From an uncultured Eubacteriales bacterium (GTDB lineage Bacteria; Bacillota; Clostridia; Oscillospirales; UBA644): 64,000 nucleotides of DNA. Both the position numbers and the translations under genes were made by a program. Within the stretch, counting starts at the first letter, position 1, and each line of letters begins with the position of its first letter. The stretch is taken from contig URFZ01000001.1 of the NCBI GenBank assembly GCA_900547165.1, positions 11,631 through 75,630 on the forward strand, in the 5' to 3' direction. The notes beneath the pieces are model-generated. The model was not told the DNA's origin, searched no databases, and saw nothing but the letters and a program-made list of their open reading frames with translations. Shown in pieces: positions 12,260 to 64,000 of the stretch.

Positions 12260-12348
12260 TGGCGGAGCGGGTGGGATTCGAACCCACGGAACCTTGCGGT
12301 TCAACTGATTTCGAGTCAGTCCCGTTATGACCACTTCGATACCGCTCC
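12260..12348 (-). tRNA. tRNA-Ser (anticodon CGA), CCA encoded
   Basis: Hand fold of the minus strand: acceptor GGAGCGG/CCGCTCC, anticodon arm ACTGA-CTCGAAA-TCAGT (C-U-CGA-A-A), long variable arm GAACC-GCAA-GGTTC, T arm GTGGG-TTCGAAT-CCCAC, then G-CCA. Length 89 nt. Confidence 0.9.
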
Positions 12349-52704: not shown

Positions 52705-54573
52705 CTATGCAGTATAATACTGAGCCTGCGCGTTCCACAGAGCATGATAAACGCCGTTTTCGTCTGAGACGAGAGAATCATGGTCTCCGCGCTGAACAAG
52801 CCTGCCGCCGTCGAACACCGCAATATCGTCGCAGAAACGGCAGGACGAAAGGCGGTGACTGATATATACGGCGGTCTTGTCGCCCACAATGGAATTGAAG
52901 TTTGAATATATTTCCGACTCCGCAACGGGGTCAAGCGCCGCGGTCGGCTCATCAAGAATGATAAACGGGGCGTTTTTGTAAAGCGCACGGGCAAGCGCGA
53001 CTTTCTGCGCTTCGCCGCCCGAAAGATCGACACCGTCGCGTTCAAACTCTTTGTAAATATATGTTTCTTCGCCTTTTTCAAGAGTTTTCAGCCTGTCCGC
53101 AAAGCCCGCTTTTTCAAGACATTCATCGGCAAGAGAAGCGTTATAATCACTCCTGCCCGCAATATTGTCTCCGAGTTTGAAAGCAAAGAGTTTGAAGTCC
53201 TGGAACACAACGGAGAAAATGCCGAGATATTCCGAATAATCGTAATCTCTTATATCTTTGCCGTTCAGCAATATCGTGCCCTCTGTCGGGTCGTAAAGGC
53301 GGCAAAGCAATTTTATAAATGTTGTTTTCCCGCTTCCGTTCCGTCCGACAACCGCAAGTTTTTCGCCCGCGCGGAATTTAATATTGACGTCTTTAAGCGC
53401 ATATTCGCCGCTTGCGGGGTATTTGAAAGACACGTTCCGAAACTCAATGACATATTCATTGTCTTTCTTTTTTTCGATATGTTCGGTTCCGCTCGCCATA
53501 TCGTTGGGTATCTCAAAAAACGTCATGCTCTTTTTCAGTGCGGGAGCATTGTTTTTAATATCGCCGAGCCCCTTGACAAGTTTTGAGAGCCCGCCCGACA
53601 TCTTTGTCAGCGCCGCAACATACTGCGCAACGCTGCCGACGCCGAACGCGCCGCCGAGAGCTTTAAGACAAACATAGAGATATGCAATACCGATAAACAC
53701 GGCGGAAACGGCGGATGATGAAGCAACGAGCGCGCCGACTTTTCCCTTACTTAACTTTGCAAAAAAGCCCTGCGAGCCGAATGCCATGGTTTTGTCGCCT
53801 ATATGCAGCGAACTTATCTTATCCTGACGGTAAATTCGCATATCGGAAGCGATATTTTTTTCATCGCCGCAAAAACCGTAATAACCGAACAGCCTGTTAA
53901 CAAGATTGTGCGTATCGGAGTTTTGCGAGTAATACGAAATTGCTTTTGTCATAAGTGCGGGCGCGGTAAGCGTTGCGGCAAGCATTACTCCGATAAGAGC
54001 GATAATACAAACGGGATTGTTCAACACCGAAAGAGCATTGCCGCTCGGTACTTTTTGTGCAAACAAAGAAACCGTCAGCACTACGCCGCCGAACAGCGTT
54101 GCGACAGCCGACGCAAGACTTTCGGTCTGCCATACAACGCTCGGCAGTCCCCACCCATTGCCGTTTATAAGCTGCATTATTTCCGAATACAGTTCATGCG
54201 TTTTCGGGTCGTCCACGGACACAAAATCCATATTGAGGAATTTTTCCGTATATAACTTGCTTATTTTTGTGTAATCGCAGGTGTTCGAATTGTCTTTCCA
54301 CATTTTCAGAAGAGCAGTCCCGAGCGCCGTCAAAGCAGCGGCAATAAGCGCGGCAACGGCAAGCACGGTCAGCCTTTTCAGGTCACGGGAAGAGGCTATT
54401 TCTCCGATAAGCAGAGCGGAAATATAGATTCCGACATACGGCGTCAGAGCCTCCCATGCAACAAAAACTATGCGCGAAAGGTACATTTGCGGATATTCCC
54501 GAAACAACAGCCGAAACGTTTTTGCGCTCAACCTGAAAGATTCGGAGAAAGAAATCTTATTCGGGTTTTTCAT
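52705..54573 (-). CDS. ABC exporter, fused permease/ATPase (second half-transporter)
   Basis: Six-TM domain, then Walker A GRNGSGKTT, LSGGEAQKVALARAL, IILDEPTAALD and YISHRL. ATG 54573 (MKNPNKISF) overlaps the upstream gene by 17 nt. Confidence 0.9.
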   Translation of the reverse strand: MKNPNKISFSESFRLSAKTFRLLFREYPQMYLSRIVFVAWEALTPYVGIYISALLIGEIASSRDLKRLTVLAVAALIAAALTALGTALLKMWKDNSNTCDYTKISKLYTEKFLNMDFVSVDDPKTHELYSEIMQLINGNGWGLPSVVWQTESLASAVATLFGGVVLTVSLFAQKVPSGNALSVLNNPVCIIALIGVMLAATLTAPALMTKAISYYSQNSDTHNLVNRLFGYYGFCGDEKNIASDMRIYRQDKISSLHIGDKTMAFGSQGFFAKLSKGKVGALVASSSAVSAVFIGIAYLYVCLKALGGAFGVGSVAQYVAALTKMSGGLSKLVKGLGDIKNNAPALKKSMTFFEIPNDMASGTEHIEKKKDNEYVIEFRNVSFKYPASGEYALKDVNIKFRAGEKLAVVGRNGSGKTTFIKLLCRLYDPTEGTILLNGKDIRDYDYSEYLGIFSVVFQDFKLFAFKLGDNIAGRSDYNASLADECLEKAGFADRLKTLEKGEETYIYKEFERDGVDLSGGEAQKVALARALYKNAPFIILDEPTAALDPVAESEIYSNFNSIVGDKTAVYISHRLSSCRFCDDIAVFDGGRLVQRGDHDSLVSDENGVYHALWNAQAQYYTA

Positions 54574-56395
54574 TGCATTCGTCCCCTTTCCGATAATATT
54601 TGCTCTGAACCTCGAACAATTCGGCATACCGCCCGCCTTTTGCGAGCAATTCCGCGTGCGTTCCCTGCTCCGCGATACCTTTGTTTTCGACAAGAATTAT
54701 TCGGTCGCAAAAGCGCGTTGACGCAAGTCTGTGCGATATGTAAACGGAAGATCTTCCGAGCGTCATTTCGTTGTATTTTTCATAAAGTTCCCGCTCCGAT
54801 ATCGGGTCAAGCGCGGCGGTCGGTTCGTCAAGCAATATCACGGGCGAATCTTTGTAAAGTGCGCGCGCCAACATAAGACGCTGCATTTCGCCGCCCGAGA
54901 GATCTACCGCATCTTCGTAAATATCCCTGTTCAGAAGACTTTCGACCCCGTTCGGGAGAGATGAAATCTTTTGAGTCAGTCCAGCACGCTCTATGCAATC
55001 CGCAACTCGGGCATAATCAATATCCGTTTCCGTCTGCGCAACATTCGCCGCGATAGTGGCGGGCAATACCGAAAATTCCTGAAACACGGCGGAGAACAGC
55101 GTATAGTAATCGCGTCTGTTATATTCGCGAATATCTTTTCCGTTCAGCAGAACCCGTCCCTCGGTCGGGTCGTAAAAACCGCAGATAAGTTTTACGAGAG
55201 TGGTCTTTCCCGCGCCGTTTAAACCGACGACGGCAAGTTTTTCACCGGGATGAAGCGTTAAATTTATATTTTCGAGAACATTTTCCGAACAACCGTCATA
55301 GCGGAACGAAACATCTTCGAGTTTAATTTCATATTTTTCTTTTGCGTCGGGAACTATATGCTCACCCTCGTCGAGCGCAAACGGTTCGGGATACTCGATA
55401 AATTCTCTGACAGTCGAAATGTCGATACTCTGCTTGTGCAGTTCGGTCAAACCCGAAAGAATACCGCTGACCCAAGCCGTGAAGCCTCCGACGGCGGAAA
55501 AGTAAAGCAAAAATTCGGCTGCGCTCAACTTGCCGGCAACGGCAAGCCCGATAAGATAAGCATAAGCAAATCCGTTTCGCAAAAACGCAAGCACAAGGTC
55601 TGCAACGCTTCCCCAAAAGTATATTCCGTTTTCCTTTTTCCTGAAAGCGGTATATGAGTTCAATGCCTTTGTATAAAGGTCTTCAAGCCACGGGCGCAGT
55701 CCGAATATACGAATGTCTTTTGCCGCGGAACGGTCCGCGGAACGGCGGTTTATATATCCTATTTTCCGTTCGTATTCGGCAATTTCTTCTTTGTGGCGAT
55801 AACCGTAGCCGTTGAGTTTTTTACCGACAAAATAACTCACAAGCGTCGTTGCCGATATAACAAGAATAAGTTTGATGTCAAGCGTTGAAAGCAAGGCAAG
55901 ATAAATGATAAATCCCGCCGTGTTTTTGAGCAGGTCGGTAAGGGTTGTCCAAACAGCCTCCGTCGCACTTCTGTTTTGCTGTGTCGGTTCAAACGCCTTT
56001 GAACAGGCTTTTCTGAACTTTTCGTTCATGATGTTCGGATATGCGGTAAGCATACATTTTCCGTTTATTTGGGAAATTATAGCCATTCGTGTCTGAATGC
56101 GCCCGAACGTCGTATTTTCGTCAATATAAGCCGCCGCCGCGGAAAAAATGACGGTCAGAAGCGTAAATATTCCGACGGCAGACATAAGTTTTGCCACGGA
56201 GTCCCCGTTCTCGACGCAGGCAAGCACCGTTGGGGTAACAAAGAGTTCCGCAAGACTTTTCGCAACGGCAAAAACAGCAGATAAAAAGCAGAGGACAAGC
56301 ACTTTTTTCTCTTTTATCCGCCACGCCGTCGAAACCATATACGCGACATTTTGCCACATATTGTATTTGGGCTTGTTCTTCTTTACCGCGTCCAT
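54557..56395 (-). CDS. ABC exporter, fused permease/ATPase (first half-transporter)
   Basis: Six-TM domain, then Walker A GLNGAGKTT, LSGGEMQRLMLARAL, ILLDEPTAALD and YISHRL. The SD (GGAGGAAACGC-ATG) lies inside the upstream sORF. Confidence 0.9.
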   Translation of the reverse strand: MDAVKKNKPKYNMWQNVAYMVSTAWRIKEKKVLVLCFLSAVFAVAKSLAELFVTPTVLACVENGDSVAKLMSAVGIFTLLTVIFSAAAAYIDENTTFGRIQTRMAIISQINGKCMLTAYPNIMNEKFRKACSKAFEPTQQNRSATEAVWTTLTDLLKNTAGFIIYLALLSTLDIKLILVISATTLVSYFVGKKLNGYGYRHKEEIAEYERKIGYINRRSADRSAAKDIRIFGLRPWLEDLYTKALNSYTAFRKKENGIYFWGSVADLVLAFLRNGFAYAYLIGLAVAGKLSAAEFLLYFSAVGGFTAWVSGILSGLTELHKQSIDISTVREFIEYPEPFALDEGEHIVPDAKEKYEIKLEDVSFRYDGCSENVLENINLTLHPGEKLAVVGLNGAGKTTLVKLICGFYDPTEGRVLLNGKDIREYNRRDYYTLFSAVFQEFSVLPATIAANVAQTETDIDYARVADCIERAGLTQKISSLPNGVESLLNRDIYEDAVDLSGGEMQRLMLARALYKDSPVILLDEPTAALDPISERELYEKYNEMTLGRSSVYISHRLASTRFCDRIILVENKGIAEQGTHAELLAKGGRYAELFEVQSKYYRKGDECNEKPE

Positions 56396-58070: not shown

Positions 58071-58622
58071 TTGGATAACGGCGCCCGTAGCTACCGCCGT
58101 TTTCTGGACGGGGACGAAAACGCCTTTGTTGAAATAATGGACGAATACCGTGACGGACTTATTTTCTTCATCAACGGCTATTTGAACGATTTTCACGCGG
58201 CGGAGGACATCGCGGCAGACTGCTTTGTGTTCCTGCTTGTCCACAAACACAGGTACAACTTCAAAGTTTCGCTGAAAACCTATCTTTATATGATAGGTCG
58301 GTCAAAGTCGCTCAATTATCTGAAAAGGCGTAAGATAATCACGACCGAAGCCCTCGACGAAGCGGAAAACGAAGTATCGGACGAAAAAACACCCGAAGAC
58401 GCCGTTCTGACAAGCGAACGAAAGCGCGCGGTTCACGAAGCGCTGAAAAAGCTGAACGAAGAAATGCGGACGGCGGTTCACCTTGTCTACTTCGACGGTA
58501 TGACCTACGCGGAAACGGCAAAAATCATGAAAAAATCTCCCAAACAGGTAGACAATCTTTTATACAGGGCAAAAGCGGAACTCCGCTCCCTGCTCGGAAA
58601 GGAGGGCGAAAGCCTCTTATGA
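58071..58622 (+). CDS. Sigma-70 family (ECF-like) RNA polymerase sigma factor
   Basis: TTG start 7 nt after GGAGGG. Region 2 is DIAADCFVFLLVHKHRYNF...LYMIGRSKSLNYLKRRK. Region 4 is MTYAETAKIMKKSPKQVDNLLYRAKAELR. Confidence 0.85.
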   Translation: MDNGARSYRRFLDGDENAFVEIMDEYRDGLIFFINGYLNDFHAAEDIAADCFVFLLVHKHRYNFKVSLKTYLYMIGRSKSLNYLKRRKIITTEALDEAENEVSDEKTPEDAVLTSERKRAVHEALKKLNEEMRTAVHLVYFDGMTYAETAKIMKKSPKQVDNLLYRAKAELRSLLGKEGESLL

Positions 58623-59218
58623 AAACAAGAGAAGAATTCAACGAAGAAGTGTTCGCTCGACGCGACGCTTATATAAAGGAAAGAAAACAAAGGACAAAAA
58701 GAATAATTTCGGTATCCGCTTCCGCGGCCTGCGTTGTTCTTGTCGCGGTCGTCGCCGTTGCGGGGTTAGGAAACAGAGACCCAAAGAAAACAAACGTTTC
58801 AAACAGCGAAGAAAACGGATATACGCTCGCCGAAACGGAAAAAATATCTGCGCTTCCGTCACACACCTCCGACAGAGCAAATTCCTCCGCCCCGGAAGCC
58901 TCCGACAAGACGAAGCTTGAAGAATTCTCTTTTGATGAAGATATGGAAAACCTCAAACCAGACCCGAATTTAAGGATAAACGGGTTTGTCAACACCTCTC
59001 CCGAAAAGACAGAAACCGCGGAGGACGCGATAAATCGGGCAAAGAAAGAATTAAAAAAGGAATATCCCGATACCGAAGTCGCGTTTGACTGTGACGAAAG
59101 CGTTTGGAGAGTGCGCTTCGGTTCAAACGATGACCCCGACGGCTGCTGCTGCGTTTATATAACCGAAAACGGTATAACGCTTGCCGTGGTTTACTTTGCC
59201 GTCGCTTACGGAAAATAA
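58619..59218 (+). CDS. Single-pass membrane protein, candidate anti-sigma factor
   Basis: ATGA overlap with the sigma gene. It has a cytoplasmic N-terminal 30 aa, a TM (IISVSASAACVVLVAVVAVAGL) and an extracytoplasmic domain. There is no zinc-finger anti-sigma motif, so the role is inferred from position only. Confidence 0.45.
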   Translation: MKTREEFNEEVFARRDAYIKERKQRTKRIISVSASAACVVLVAVVAVAGLGNRDPKKTNVSNSEENGYTLAETEKISALPSHTSDRANSSAPEASDKTKLEEFSFDEDMENLKPDPNLRINGFVNTSPEKTETAEDAINRAKKELKKEYPDTEVAFDCDESVWRVRFGSNDDPDGCCCVYITENGITLAVVYFAVAYGK

Positions 59219-60271: not shown

Positions 60272-61552
60272 ATGAAAAAGAAAATAACAGGGATTTTTGC
60301 GCTGCTGCTCGCGGCGGTTATAGGAATCAACATTTCGGGCTGCGCAAAAAGGGTGCAGGCAGCAGATCTTTCACAGGGAATAACGCCCGTCAAGGTCGAA
60401 GGCAAGGCGGCGGACGCGAAATATTCGGCCGCGCAGATGAACTTTGCGCTCAAACTGCTTGAAAAAACGTTTGAAGAAAAAGGAAAGGAAAATCTGCTTG
60501 TCTCTCCCGTTTCCGTTACGCTTGCGCTTGCGATGACATCAAACGGCGCGGACGGAGAAACGAAAAAGCAGTTTGAAACTTTGCTCGGCTCGGGCATGGA
60601 CACCGACGAACTGAACGCCTATCTTTATGCCTTTTTGCAAAGCTTTTCAAATGAAAATGCCGGAAAACTGAAAACAGCGAACTCGATATGGTTCAACACG
60701 GAGCATCACTCTTTTGAAGCGGACAGAACCTTTTTGCAGAAAAACGCGGATTGGTATTCGGCGTCGCTTTACGGTTCCGATTTCGGGGCTCAAACCGTCA
60801 AAGACATCAACGCGTGGGTCAGCGACAAAACCGATAAAATGATAGACCGGATAATTGAAGATATCGACAAAGACACCGTTATGTTTTTGATAAACGCGCT
60901 TTCTTTTGACGCGGAGTGGCAGGATGTTTACAGGAAAAAAGACATCTCTGAAGGAACATTCACATCTCTTGACGGGCAAAAAAGAAAAGTCGAAATGATG
61001 CGGTCGAAAGAATACGCATATTTCGACGACGGGTATGCGACAGGCTTCAGAAAGAATTATACAGGCGGAAGATATTCGTTTATCGCGTTGCTTCCGAACG
61101 AGGGCGTTTCACTTGCCGATTACGTCAAAACTCTTGCGAATACCGCGCCCGAAAAGGTCGTTAAAATGCTGACCTCTCCGCAAAGTACGTCGGTACAGGC
61201 AACAATGCCGAAATTCGGCTATGATTTTGAATTGAGGCTCAACGACATCCTTATCGCGCTCGGGCTTTCCGACGCTTTCAATGCCTCAAAGGCAAACCTT
61301 TCAAAGCTCGGAAAATGCAGCGACGGAAGCAACCTTTATATAAGCGAGGTTTTGCATAAAACGCATATCGAAGTTGACGAGCGCGGCACAAAGGCGGGAG
61401 CGGTGACCTCGGTCGCAATCAATGCGGAAGCCTCGATGTACCCCGAAGAAATAAAAGAAGTCACGCTTGACAGACCTTTCGTCTATATCATATTCGACAA
61501 CGAGACCTCGACCCCGATATTTATAGGCTCGGTAACGGACATACAAAAATAA
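60272..61552 (+). CDS. Serpin-family protease inhibitor, lipoprotein
   Basis: Signal MKKKITGIFALLLAAVIGINISGC. Serpin blocks: NLLVSPVSVTLALAMTSNGADGETKKQFETLL, FIALLPNEG, hinge/RCL DERGTKAGAVTSVAINAEASMYPE, and LDRPFVYIIFD. Confidence 0.85.
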   Translation: MKKKITGIFALLLAAVIGINISGCAKRVQAADLSQGITPVKVEGKAADAKYSAAQMNFALKLLEKTFEEKGKENLLVSPVSVTLALAMTSNGADGETKKQFETLLGSGMDTDELNAYLYAFLQSFSNENAGKLKTANSIWFNTEHHSFEADRTFLQKNADWYSASLYGSDFGAQTVKDINAWVSDKTDKMIDRIIEDIDKDTVMFLINALSFDAEWQDVYRKKDISEGTFTSLDGQKRKVEMMRSKEYAYFDDGYATGFRKNYTGGRYSFIALLPNEGVSLADYVKTLANTAPEKVVKMLTSPQSTSVQATMPKFGYDFELRLNDILIALGLSDAFNASKANLSKLGKCSDGSNLYISEVLHKTHIEVDERGTKAGAVTSVAINAEASMYPEEIKEVTLDRPFVYIIFDNETSTPIFIGSVTDIQK

Positions 61553-62018: not shown

Positions 62019-62207
62019 GTGAGAGAGGTGTCACCATGTCAGGAGCGCTTCTTTTTCTCAACGACCGTAACCGCAACGGGCGGCTTCGGAATAGGGCTTT
62101 CGATAGCGCGCAGTATCGCGGAGGGACACAGAGGAAGCATAAAAGCGAAAAGCGACGACGGGAGAACGATCGAATTTGCTGCGGAGCTCAGACAGATGAC
62201 AAAATGA
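62019..62207 (+). pseudogene. 3' remnant of a histidine kinase gene (HATPase_c G2 box onward)
   Basis: ..CQERFFFSTTVTATGGFGIGLSIARSIAEGHRGSIKAKSDDGRTIEFAAEL is the last approx. 55 aa of a sensor kinase. An in-frame TAA lies 4 codons upstream. No DHp/H-box, N-box or SD is present. Confidence 0.6.
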
Positions 62208-62246: not shown

Positions 62247-62275
62247 TTGACAATGCCGTTTATATATGATATAAT
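62247..62275 (+). promoter_or_regulatory. Consensus extended -10 sigma-A promoter of the SCIFF precursor
   Basis: TTGACA-17 nt-(TGA)TATAAT, 32 nt upstream of ATG 62308. Confidence 0.75.
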
Positions 62276-62307
62276 ATAACAAATCTATCTTTACGGAGGA
62301 TAAAATC

Positions 62308-62457
62308 ATGGAGAATATTAAGACGATAAGCACACGCAACCTTTGCGAGAGCGCGAAAAACGGCGGCTGCGGCGAATGCCAGACTTCCTGCCAATCCGCT
62401 TGCAAGACCAGCTGCGGCATTGCTAACCAGGCTTGCGAGAACAAAGAAAGCAAGTAA
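62308..62457 (+). CDS. SCIFF-type (six-cysteines-in-forty-five family) radical-SAM-modified peptide precursor
   Basis: Absent from the ORF track because it is 49 aa. GGAGG lies 8 nt upstream. Hand translation: MENIKTISTRNLCESAKNGGCGECQTSCQSACKTSCGIANQACENKESK*. The block GGCGECQTSCQSACKTSC matches the SCIFF family signature as I remember it. Confidence 0.9.
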   Translation: MENIKTISTRNLCESAKNGGCGECQTSCQSACKTSCGIANQACENKESK

Positions 62458-62476
62458 TTTTTGACAAAGAACTAAG

Positions 62477-62505
62477 ATGCCGCCCTTTCGGGGGCGGCAT
62501 TTTTA
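62477..62505 (+). terminator. Hairpin plus U-tract between precursor and maturase (partial terminator)
   Basis: ATGCCGCCC-TTTCGG-GGGCGGCAT followed by TTTTAG. The maturase ATGs follow at 62508 and 62520. Confidence 0.65.
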
Positions 62506-62519
62506 GAATGAAAGATATT

Positions 62520-63908
62520 ATGATTCATCAATATAAATTTAACGGCAGAAATATAGTTTTGGACGTGTGTTCGGGCGCGGTACACGTTGTGGACGACCCG
62601 ACTTACGACATCATCTCAATGTTTGAAACAAACGACCTCGAAACGATAAAAAAAGCCGTTACCGAAAAATACAAAGACAGCGACGACGTTACGGAAAAGG
62701 ACATAGAGAACTGTTACGCACAGCTGCTCGAAATGCAGAAGAACGGTCAGCTGTTTACGGCCGATTCGTTTGAGCCCATGGCGGGAACGCTGAAAGCCCG
62801 CACATCGGGAGTTGTTAAGGCGCTATGTCTTCACATCGCGCACACCTGCAACCTTAACTGCTCATATTGTTTTGCAAGCCAAGGCAAGTATCACGGCGAA
62901 CGTGCGCTTATGAGTTACGAAGTCGGCAAACGCGCCCTTGATTTTCTTATAGAAAATTCGGGCACGAGAAGAAACCTGGAAGTCGATTTCTTCGGCGGCG
63001 AACCGCTGATGAATTTTGATGTCGTAAAACAACTTGTCGCATACGCAAGAATCATAGAAAAAGAAAAGAACAAGAATTTCCGCTTTACGCTCACTACAAA
63101 CGGTGTGCTTGTGGACGACGATGTTATAGAATTTTCCAACAGGGAGATGAGCAACGTCGTTTTAAGCCTTGACGGCAGAAAAGAAGTTCACGACAGATAC
63201 CGTGTCGATTATGCGGGCAACGGCAGTTGGGAAAAGATAGTTCCGAAGTTCCAAAAGTTTGTCAATGCTCGCGGCGGCAAAAATTACTATATGAGGGGCA
63301 CATTCACTCACGCCAACCCCGATTTTCTTGAAGACATCAAAACGATGCTCGATCTCGGTTTTTCGGAACTCAGCATGGAACCGGTTGTTGCCGCTTCGGA
63401 CGATCCCGCCGCATTGACGGAGGAAGATAAGCCCGTTGTAATGAAGCAATACGAAGACCTTGCGAAACTTATGCTCGAAAGGGATAAAGAGGGCAAGCCG
63501 TTCACGTTCTATCACTATATGATAGATCTGAAAGGCGGGCCGTGCATATACAAGCGCATCTCGGGCTGCGGTTCGGGGACGGAATATATGGCGGTCACGC
63601 CGTGGGGCGACCTCTACCCCTGCCACCAGTTCGTCGGCGACGAAAAATTCAAGCTCGGCGATATATGGTCGGGCGTAAACAACAAAAAAATTCAGGATGA
63701 GTTCGCGTCCTGCAATGTGTATGCAAGAGAAGAATGCCGCGACTGCTGGGCAAGACTTTACTGCTCGGGCGGTTGTGCGGCAAACGCATATCATGCGACA
63801 GGGTCGGTCAAAGGCGTTTACAAATACGGGTGCGACCTTTTCAAGAAGAGAATGGAATGTGCGATAGCAGTTGCCGTCGAACGCGAATTGAGAGCGGAAA
63901 ATGAGTAA
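62520..63908 (+). CDS. SCIFF peptide maturase, radical SAM/SPASM thioether-forming enzyme
   Basis: Radical SAM motif CLHIAHTCNLNCSYCF (CxxxCxxC) and GGEPLMNF. The SPASM C-terminus is CGSGTEYMAVTPWGDLYPCHQF...CRDCWARLYCSGGCAANA. The start is ATG 62520 (MIHQYKFNGRNIVLDV) or 62508. The track start at 62433 lies inside the precursor gene. Confidence 0.9.
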   Translation: MIHQYKFNGRNIVLDVCSGAVHVVDDPTYDIISMFETNDLETIKKAVTEKYKDSDDVTEKDIENCYAQLLEMQKNGQLFTADSFEPMAGTLKARTSGVVKALCLHIAHTCNLNCSYCFASQGKYHGERALMSYEVGKRALDFLIENSGTRRNLEVDFFGGEPLMNFDVVKQLVAYARIIEKEKNKNFRFTLTTNGVLVDDDVIEFSNREMSNVVLSLDGRKEVHDRYRVDYAGNGSWEKIVPKFQKFVNARGGKNYYMRGTFTHANPDFLEDIKTMLDLGFSELSMEPVVAASDDPAALTEEDKPVVMKQYEDLAKLMLERDKEGKPFTFYHYMIDLKGGPCIYKRISGCGSGTEYMAVTPWGDLYPCHQFVGDEKFKLGDIWSGVNNKKIQDEFASCNVYAREECRDCWARLYCSGGCAANAYHATGSVKGVYKYGCDLFKKRMECAIAVAVERELRAENE

Positions 63909-64000
63909 ACCTATCTGCGACTTTGTGCGCAAATACGCAAAAAGCAATGCGGCAAGATTTCACATGCCCGGGCATAAAGGCGTTCCGTTTCTCGGATTTG
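63901..64000 (+). CDS. Orn/Lys/Arg decarboxylase-fold PLP enzyme (YaaO-like), N-terminus only
   Basis: ATG 63901 overlaps the maturase stop by 8 nt. MSKPICDFVRKYAKSNAARFHMPGHKGVPFLGF carries the HMPGHK N-terminal motif. The gene runs off the window. Confidence 0.65.
   Translation, partial: MSKPICDFVRKYAKSNAARFHMPGHKGVPFLGF

Follow-up and report, generated by a model that had tools for sequence, protein, structure and literature searches.

SCIFF peptides have been known as a bioinformatically defined family since 2011; two of their maturases have been studied in vitro, and the maturase CteB has been crystallised. Here we describe a pair of genes of this family, the precursor gene scfA and the radical S-adenosylmethionine (SAM)/SPASM maturase gene scfB, which lie near the end of a 64,000-nt stretch of DNA from an uncultured Eubacteriales bacterium. 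We refer to the whole stretch as the window.

The closest described systems are CteA/CteB (thermocellin) of Clostridium (Acetivibrio) thermocellum and Tte1186a/Tte1186 of Caldanaerobacter subterraneus. The latter belongs to the same SCIFF/ScfB family, and its peptide receives a single Cys-Thr thioether in vitro (PMC8326336, PMC10177961, PMC8172795). For both Tte1186a and CteA, the link formed in vitro joins Cys32 to Thr37, but co-expression of CteA with CteB in E. coli yields a link from Cys32 to the gamma carbon of Thr34, so the positions reported in vitro and in E. coli disagree (PMC8326336, PMC8172795). In the literature, SCIFFs have been reclassified as ranthipeptides (PMC8326336, PMC8172795), and a 2026 preprint describes SCIFF clusters as the most conserved biosynthetic clusters in Clostridia, still uncharacterised.

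The precursor and its maturase

The translation of scfA is MENIKTISTRNLCESAKNGGCGECQTSCQSACKTSCGIANQACENKESK. The leader spans approximately residues 1-18, and the core carries cysteines at positions 21, 24, 28, 32, 36, and 43, with threonines at positions 26 and 34 and a glycine at position 37. The peptide scores 75.3 bits against the NCBIfam model TIGR03973, 'six-cysteine ranthipeptide SCIFF' (cut-off 50), and 78 bits against Pfam PF13165 (cut-off 27). It has the six-cysteine spacing of SCIFFs (GGCGECQTSCQSACKTSC...C in a peptide of about 45 residues), and GGCGECQTSCQSACKTSC is the family consensus, as in the CteA/CteB system. Besides the six core cysteines, the peptide contains a clade-specific cysteine in the leader, Cys13 (62344-62346); the total is seven and not six, as had been counted before. 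Across 75 related sequences, the nucleotide entropy of the core codons is 0.068, 0.035, and 0.869 at positions 1, 2, and 3, respectively, and these codons differ from the window copy by 636 synonymous and 74 non-synonymous changes, the latter mostly at residue 42. The codon-position entropy and the synonymous excess indicate that scfA is translated and that purifying selection on it is very strong. No second SCIFF-like cysteine pattern is found in any frame of the window. Elsewhere, three database metagenomic open reading frames (ORFs; P0121, P0122, and P0002) contain tandem SCIFF units, leader plus core, fused in one frame; these could be genuine duplications or assembly artefacts.

ScfB scores 763 bits against TIGR03974, 'thioether cross-link-forming SCIFF peptide maturase' (equivalog cut-off 425). 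An alternative ATG at 62508 would give a protein of 466 residues. The best match in the PDB is CteB (5WGG/5WHY; E = 2e-160, residues 1-452), to which ScfB is 53% identical over the full length, with all radical-SAM and auxiliary-cluster cysteines aligned. The two enzymes share the same three domains, namely N-terminal peptide recognition, radical-SAM barrel, and SPASM. In particular, residues 1-100 of ScfB align in sequence with residues 6-100 of CteB, a region called RRE in PMC8326336 and thus a putative recognition domain here, and CNLNCSYC of ScfB aligns with CNLRCKYC of CteB. PF04055 matches the enzyme with 56.4 bits. PF13186 (SPASM) matches with 21.8 bits, barely over its cut-off of 21.5, and the full seven-cysteine SPASM pattern is present (C350-x17-C368, C406xxC409x5C415x3C419, and C438).

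Related enzymes that form other thioethers fit less well. PapB, which acts on PapA (freyrasin), and QhpD are radical SAM/SPASM enzymes that link cysteines with Asp or Glu residues of CxxxD repeats. The window peptide has no such repeats, and ScfB stays below the cut-offs of both models (274 bits against PapB, cut-off 340; 256 bits against QhpD, cut-off 453). A sactipeptide system, with thioethers to alpha carbons, is not supported either, the sactisynthase models being far under their cut-offs (RumMC 128 versus 720; SkfB reaches only E = 4e-4 in the PDB search).

To place the locus among its relatives, we used a one-genome-per-species scan that yields 541 maturase relatives, of which the best 80 were examined. 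These share 75-89% identity with the window ScfB, and their sources are without exception uncultured Clostridia of gut or rumen, with labels such as Oscillospiraceae, Acutalibacteraceae, Ruminococcus sp., and Eubacteriales. In at least 74 of the 80 loci, the maturase is immediately preceded by a SCIFF ORF, at a median distance of 67.5 nt. By its sequence, the locus is a standard scfA-scfB pair of uncultured gut Clostridia (Oscillospirales/Acutalibacteraceae-like).

A preliminary description of this DNA had proposed the same identity, a SCIFF precursor of 150 nt with a dedicated 462-residue maturase. The peptide is recovered letter for letter, the enzyme has the CxxxCxxC motif and the complete cysteines of a twin-cluster SPASM domain, and the promoter (12 of 12 positions, with the TG extension), the ribosome-binding site, and the hairpin downstream of scfA are all present. 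The hidden Markov models that the description had named as a check are both passed well above their curated cut-offs, in agreement with the full-length relationship to CteB.

Table 1 Features of the scfA-scfB locus, in window coordinates
Feature	Position	Strand	Basis or remark
Sigma-70-type promoter: -35 TTGACA 62247-62252, 17-nt spacer, extended -10 TGaTATAAT 62267-62275	62247..62275	+	12/12 match
Shine-Dalgarno GGAGG	62295..62299	+	8 nt before scfA ATG
scfA, SCIFF ranthipeptide precursor, 49 aa	62308..62457	+	TIGR03973, PF13165, codon signature
GC-rich hairpin, intrinsic-terminator-like; core stem 62477-62500, T5 62500-62504	62472..62506	+	between scfA and scfB
scfB, 462-aa radical SAM/SPASM thioether-forming SCIFF maturase	62520..63908	+	TIGR03974
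Radical-SAM cluster motif C110-x3-C114-x2-C117 (CNLNCSYC, residues 110-117)	62847..62870	+	motif search; PF04055, PF13353
SPASM region, auxiliary-cluster cysteines C342, C350, C368, C406, C409, C415, C419, C438, C447	63543..63860	+	motif search, CteB alignment
Start of gene for pyridoxal 5'-phosphate (PLP)-dependent enzyme, Orn/Lys/Arg-decarboxylase fold; overlaps scfB stop by 8 nt, runs past window end	63901..64000	+	

Residue 37 and the crosslink site

Two subtypes of the peptide can be distinguished at residue 37, with counts taken from among the matches listed per search (the best 120-150 hits each). Among these, every parsable nearest homologue of the window peptide (115 of 115 and 132 of 132) has the core KTSC-G-[IV]ANQ, and most nearest homologues also have a leader cysteine. 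In the search seeded with the Thr37 variant, 118 of 119 peptides, from Lachnospiraceae, Eubacterium, and others, read KTSC-T-VGNQ and have no leader cysteine. The subtypes thus also differ after residue 37, with IANQ in the window peptide and VGNQ in the Thr37 type. Thr34 is invariant in both (119 of 119 in the Thr37-type search), and Thr26 is nearly so.

CteA, compared here from its description in a review, has the in-vitro acceptor Thr37 where the window peptide has Gly37 (PMC8326336). Because residue 37 is glycine, the Cys32-Thr37 link cannot form in the window subtype, and the linkage reported for Tte1186a is likewise unavailable to it. The Cys-to-Thr crosslink of the preliminary description therefore does not stand in its Cys32-Thr37 form, but Thr34 and Thr26 are both present. 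With Gly37 in all close relatives and Thr34 invariant in both subtypes, the acceptor in the window peptide is most plausibly Thr34, joined through its gamma carbon to Cys32.

Single substitutions of the window peptide scored against TIGR03973 change the score by +1.2 bits (G37T), -3.7 bits (T34A), -3.0 bits (C43A), and +4.0 bits (C13K). The model tolerates Gly or Thr at position 37, wants Thr34, and finds Cys13 atypical. Its near-equal treatment of Gly and Thr suggests that function does not depend critically on residue 37. All 74 close loci have kept Cys13, which is absent from Thr37-type peptides. In 64 loci, it co-occurs with Cys17 of the maturase (62568-62570), a residue of the recognition domain where CteB has Asn; the exceptions have Tyr, Phe, or Ala, and the co-occurrence comes from few independent lineages and is phylogenetically confounded.

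These features also bear on an alternative that we consider unlikely, though it fares best among those weighed here, that the chemistry of the Gly37/Cys13 subtype differs from that of CteA and involves several thioethers, another acceptor (Thr26, or Asn40 in N-Q-x-C), or the leader Cys13. Gly37 removes one reported acceptor, Thr26 is conserved too, and Cys13 is kept in the close loci despite being atypical for the family. Precedents exist in other systems, in that Cys-Asn beta-thioethers are known in NxxC motifs (PMC8326336) and the related PapB forms six links (PMC8172795). However, the remaining core is identical between the subtypes, the family model is nearly indifferent to Gly or Thr at position 37, and the maturase is a plain ScfB equivalog with just over half of its residues shared with CteB. 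In the SCIFF reviews, we find no biochemically characterised Gly37/leader-Cys13 member.

At the end of the core, N40-Q41-A42-C43 (62425-62436) forms a conserved N-Q-x-C motif. It bears a resemblance, and no more than that, to the NxxC motif on which a Cys-Asn beta-thioether is formed in the unrelated NxxcA system.

Expression, proposed working, and biological role

The -10 hexamer of the scfA promoter (62270-62275) is preceded by its TG extension (62267-62268), and nowhere else in the window is TTGACA-N14-TGnTATAAT matched perfectly. If one mismatch is tolerated, there are five extended-promoter matches, compared with 0.03 expected from shuffles. Of 74 related loci, 66 have a promoter before scfA that matches at least 10 of 12 positions, mostly with the TG extension, and a GGAGG- or GGAGGT-like motif occupies the equivalent position in nearly all related loci.

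The hairpin lies 15-49 nt past the scfA stop codon and is followed by UUUUU. It folds with -22.5 kcal/mol (z = -5.0), a stability that not one of 200 shuffled sequences reaches. Among the related loci, 68 of 76 have a hairpin followed by four to seven T residues within 110 nt of the scfA stop codon; the 5' arms comprise 43 distinct sequences, and pairing is retained in all. Distant Thr37-type loci have a stem-loop of wholly different sequence at the same position in most cases examined. The gap between scfA and scfB is 62 nt. From the T-run to the scfB ATG there are only 15 nt, too few for scfB to have its own promoter there; in accordance, no promoter-like site is found in 62458-62519. A TTGACA at 62461-62466, just past the scfA stop codon, was considered as a maturase promoter and rejected, having no -10 partner and no conservation. 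Neither the leader nor the intergenic region matches an RNA family in the Rfam scan, whose sole match in the whole window is a tRNA-Ser (12260-12348).

The hairpin probably acts as a leaky terminator or as a transcript-stabilising 3' end, giving much precursor mRNA and little maturase mRNA. High-precursor/low-enzyme transcript arrangements are common in operons of peptide natural products. In such a scheme, the strong, constitutive-looking promoter and the good ribosome-binding site would drive scfA, and most transcripts would stop at the hairpin, yielding a short (~220 nt), abundant precursor mRNA. The fraction that reads through would provide a little maturase and probably a little of the overlapping PLP enzyme too.

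The subsequent steps are inferred from the family and from the structure of CteB. The N-terminal domain of ScfB would bind the leader, as suggested by the biochemistry of CteB and Tte1186 (PMC8326336, PMC8172795). SAM would be reductively cleaved at the C110/C114/C117 cluster, and the resulting 5'-deoxyadenosyl radical would abstract a side-chain hydrogen of the Thr; a core Cys, ligated to the open iron of auxiliary cluster I, would then close the thioether with a loss of 2 Da (PMC8326336, PMC10177961).

The role of the product, the least certain part of the account, is most likely signalling or regulation in cell physiology and not antibiosis, because of the knockouts of Chen et al. (2020). 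SCIFF knockouts in the solventogenic clostridia C. beijerinckii and C. ljungdahlii are reported to alter the expression of sporulation genes, which go down, and of agr quorum-sensing genes, which go up (Chen et al. 2020, as cited in PMC8326336 and PMC8102284). These Clostridium SCIFFs belong to the same family in distant taxa and are its only members with reported knockout phenotypes. The preliminary description had called the role still unknown, which is partly out of date: it holds for the mature product and its mechanism, but the knockouts link SCIFFs to quorum sensing and to sporulation gene expression.

We are highly confident in the account as a whole, that of a standard scfAB pair in an operon probably attenuated by the hairpin, with a likely Thr34 link and, least certainly, a signalling or regulatory role. 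Several points weigh against it. Conservation is the argument for the crosslink site, and a link to Thr26, or more than one link, is possible. The quorum-sensing evidence is one study of distant Clostridium species, taken here from secondary sources. No exporter or leader protease adjoins scfAB, which is awkward for a secreted signal. Finally, the U-tract after the hairpin has only five U residues, and because it is short, the terminator rule is narrowly missed on the plus strand and the hairpin goes unflagged.

The lack of an adjoining exporter fits better with a peptide that stays intracellular, its mostly unmodified cysteines binding Fe-S clusters or metals or buffering redox and its single thioether only shaping the peptide, an alternative that strikes us as distinctly improbable. 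Only one of the six core cysteines is crosslinked in characterised SCIFFs (PMC8326336, PMC8172795). SCIFF genes are near-universal, do not occur more than once per genome, and sit in housekeeping contexts, and neither this clade nor the Thr37-type loci examined show an exporter or protease linked to the pair. Against PDB sequences, the peptide has a sole match, to a ferredoxin-type Cys motif of epoxyqueuosine reductase, but this match is at chance level and not significant (E = 0.62), and the spacing C-x2-C-x3-C-x3-C-x3-C is not the canonical ferredoxin motif. Moreover, the effects on the knockout transcriptomes were interpreted as quorum sensing.

Likewise, we give little credence to the hairpin being something other than an attenuator, either a complete terminator with the scfB promoter inside scfA or a stabilising 3' stem left after RNA processing. 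Such readings draw on the high stability of the stem, the unmet terminator rule, and a few loci that have no hairpin or have long gaps. However, they are hard to reconcile with the short distance from the T-run to scfB and the intergenic region free of promoter-like sites, and the position of the hairpin is kept while the stem sequences vary, as expected if the RNA structure has a function and sets the ratio of precursor to enzyme.

Neighbouring genes and meaning for the family

The gene for the PLP-dependent enzyme recurs with the pair. A tblastn search with the 33 residues encoded in the window finds a match in 76 of the 80 loci. In about 65-76 of the 80, the gene comes after scfB in the same orientation; the median distance from the scfB stop codon to the ATG of the PLP gene is -1 nt (65 loci). 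It also follows scfB in locus L082 (6619-7959) and in a 'Candidatus Limiplasma' metagenome-assembled genome. The full-length homologue in the closest locus, L001 (4382-5725), matches PF01276 with 100 bits and no specific equivalog model. The gene is probably co-transcribed with scfB. Thr37-type loci have no PLP gene, and secDF or recJ follows scfB instead, the context being tgt-yajC-scfA-scfB-secDF-recJ. Thus, the PLP linkage is specific to the Gly37 clade; it may be incidental synteny.

In particular, the Thr37-type pairs stand among secretion and housekeeping genes, between yajC and secDF in L087 (4001-7833) and between yajC and recJ in L089 (2393-6674); L091 (4001-7933) has secDF downstream and no yajC upstream.

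It is very doubtful, in our judgement, that the Gly37/leader-Cys13 peptide receives a ring or rings unlike those of CteA, possibly involving Cys13 or N-Q-x-C, and forms a three-gene pathway together with the overlapping PLP enzyme. Nothing relevant was found in the literature searched on SCIFF peptides together with a decarboxylase or a terminator. The notion that the small ORF is a chance, untranslated frame and the enzyme an orphan ScfB-like maturase has practically nothing in its favour except the shortness of the ORF and is refuted, as far as sequence analysis reaches, by both family scores far above cut-off, the codon-position signature of purifying selection, the conserved synteny, and a score of 559.6 against the exception model NF040492, 'not_ScfB', for such orphans, under its cut-off of 855.

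The genes upstream of the promoter were considered as parts of the system and rejected. The ECF sigma factor (58071-58622), the putative anti-sigma factor (58619-59218), a 350-aa protein of unknown function, the serpin, and a 102-aa membrane protein are syntenic in none of the 80 loci. The serpin, a bacterial member of its family downstream of the sigma and anti-sigma factor genes (60272-61552, plus strand), is full-length (PF00079, 303 bits) and has an apparent N-terminal lipoprotein or signal-like segment. Just 5' of the scfA promoter, a 62-aa ORF (62019-62207, plus strand) matches a histidine-kinase ATPase domain over its final third alone (HATPase_c profile positions 61-108 of 111) and looks like a 5'-truncated kinase remnant. 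This remnant is the only upstream gene that recurs, in the closest locus alone (L001, 2547-2690). Further away, a pair of neighbouring ABC exporter genes, in which membrane and ATPase domains are fused (52705-56395, minus strand), are not syntenic with scfAB; they were rejected as dedicated exporters, having no peptidase domain and lying about 6 kb away on the opposite strand.

As a gene pair, scfAB of the window is already-known biology, since 5,157 clusters at 90% identity (1,251 representatives at 50% identity) match the peptide and public pipelines name SCIFF peptides. The preliminary description was right to call the precursor unannotated as regards the six-frame track, but near-identical peptides already bear the name 'six-cysteine ranthipeptide SCIFF' in public records. 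Its view of the pair as the clearest open biology in the window is fair for the SCIFF family, but the window locus adds nothing beyond thousands of others. Accordingly, the annotation value is small, SCIFF and ScfB being recognised by curated models at about one per genome across Clostridia. In the literature searched, we found no description of the Gly37 subtype, the leader cysteine, the conserved hairpin, or the PLP coupling.

What can be learned from the subtype and the layout is general to the relatives and not specific to the window. The order of promoter, precursor, hairpin, and maturase predicts a short, abundant precursor transcript, which could easily be sought in gut metatranscriptomes. 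In addition, a large natural subtype that lacks Thr37 and keeps Thr34 and Thr26 favours the Cys32-Thr34 assignment, or at least argues against Thr37 as the universal acceptor.

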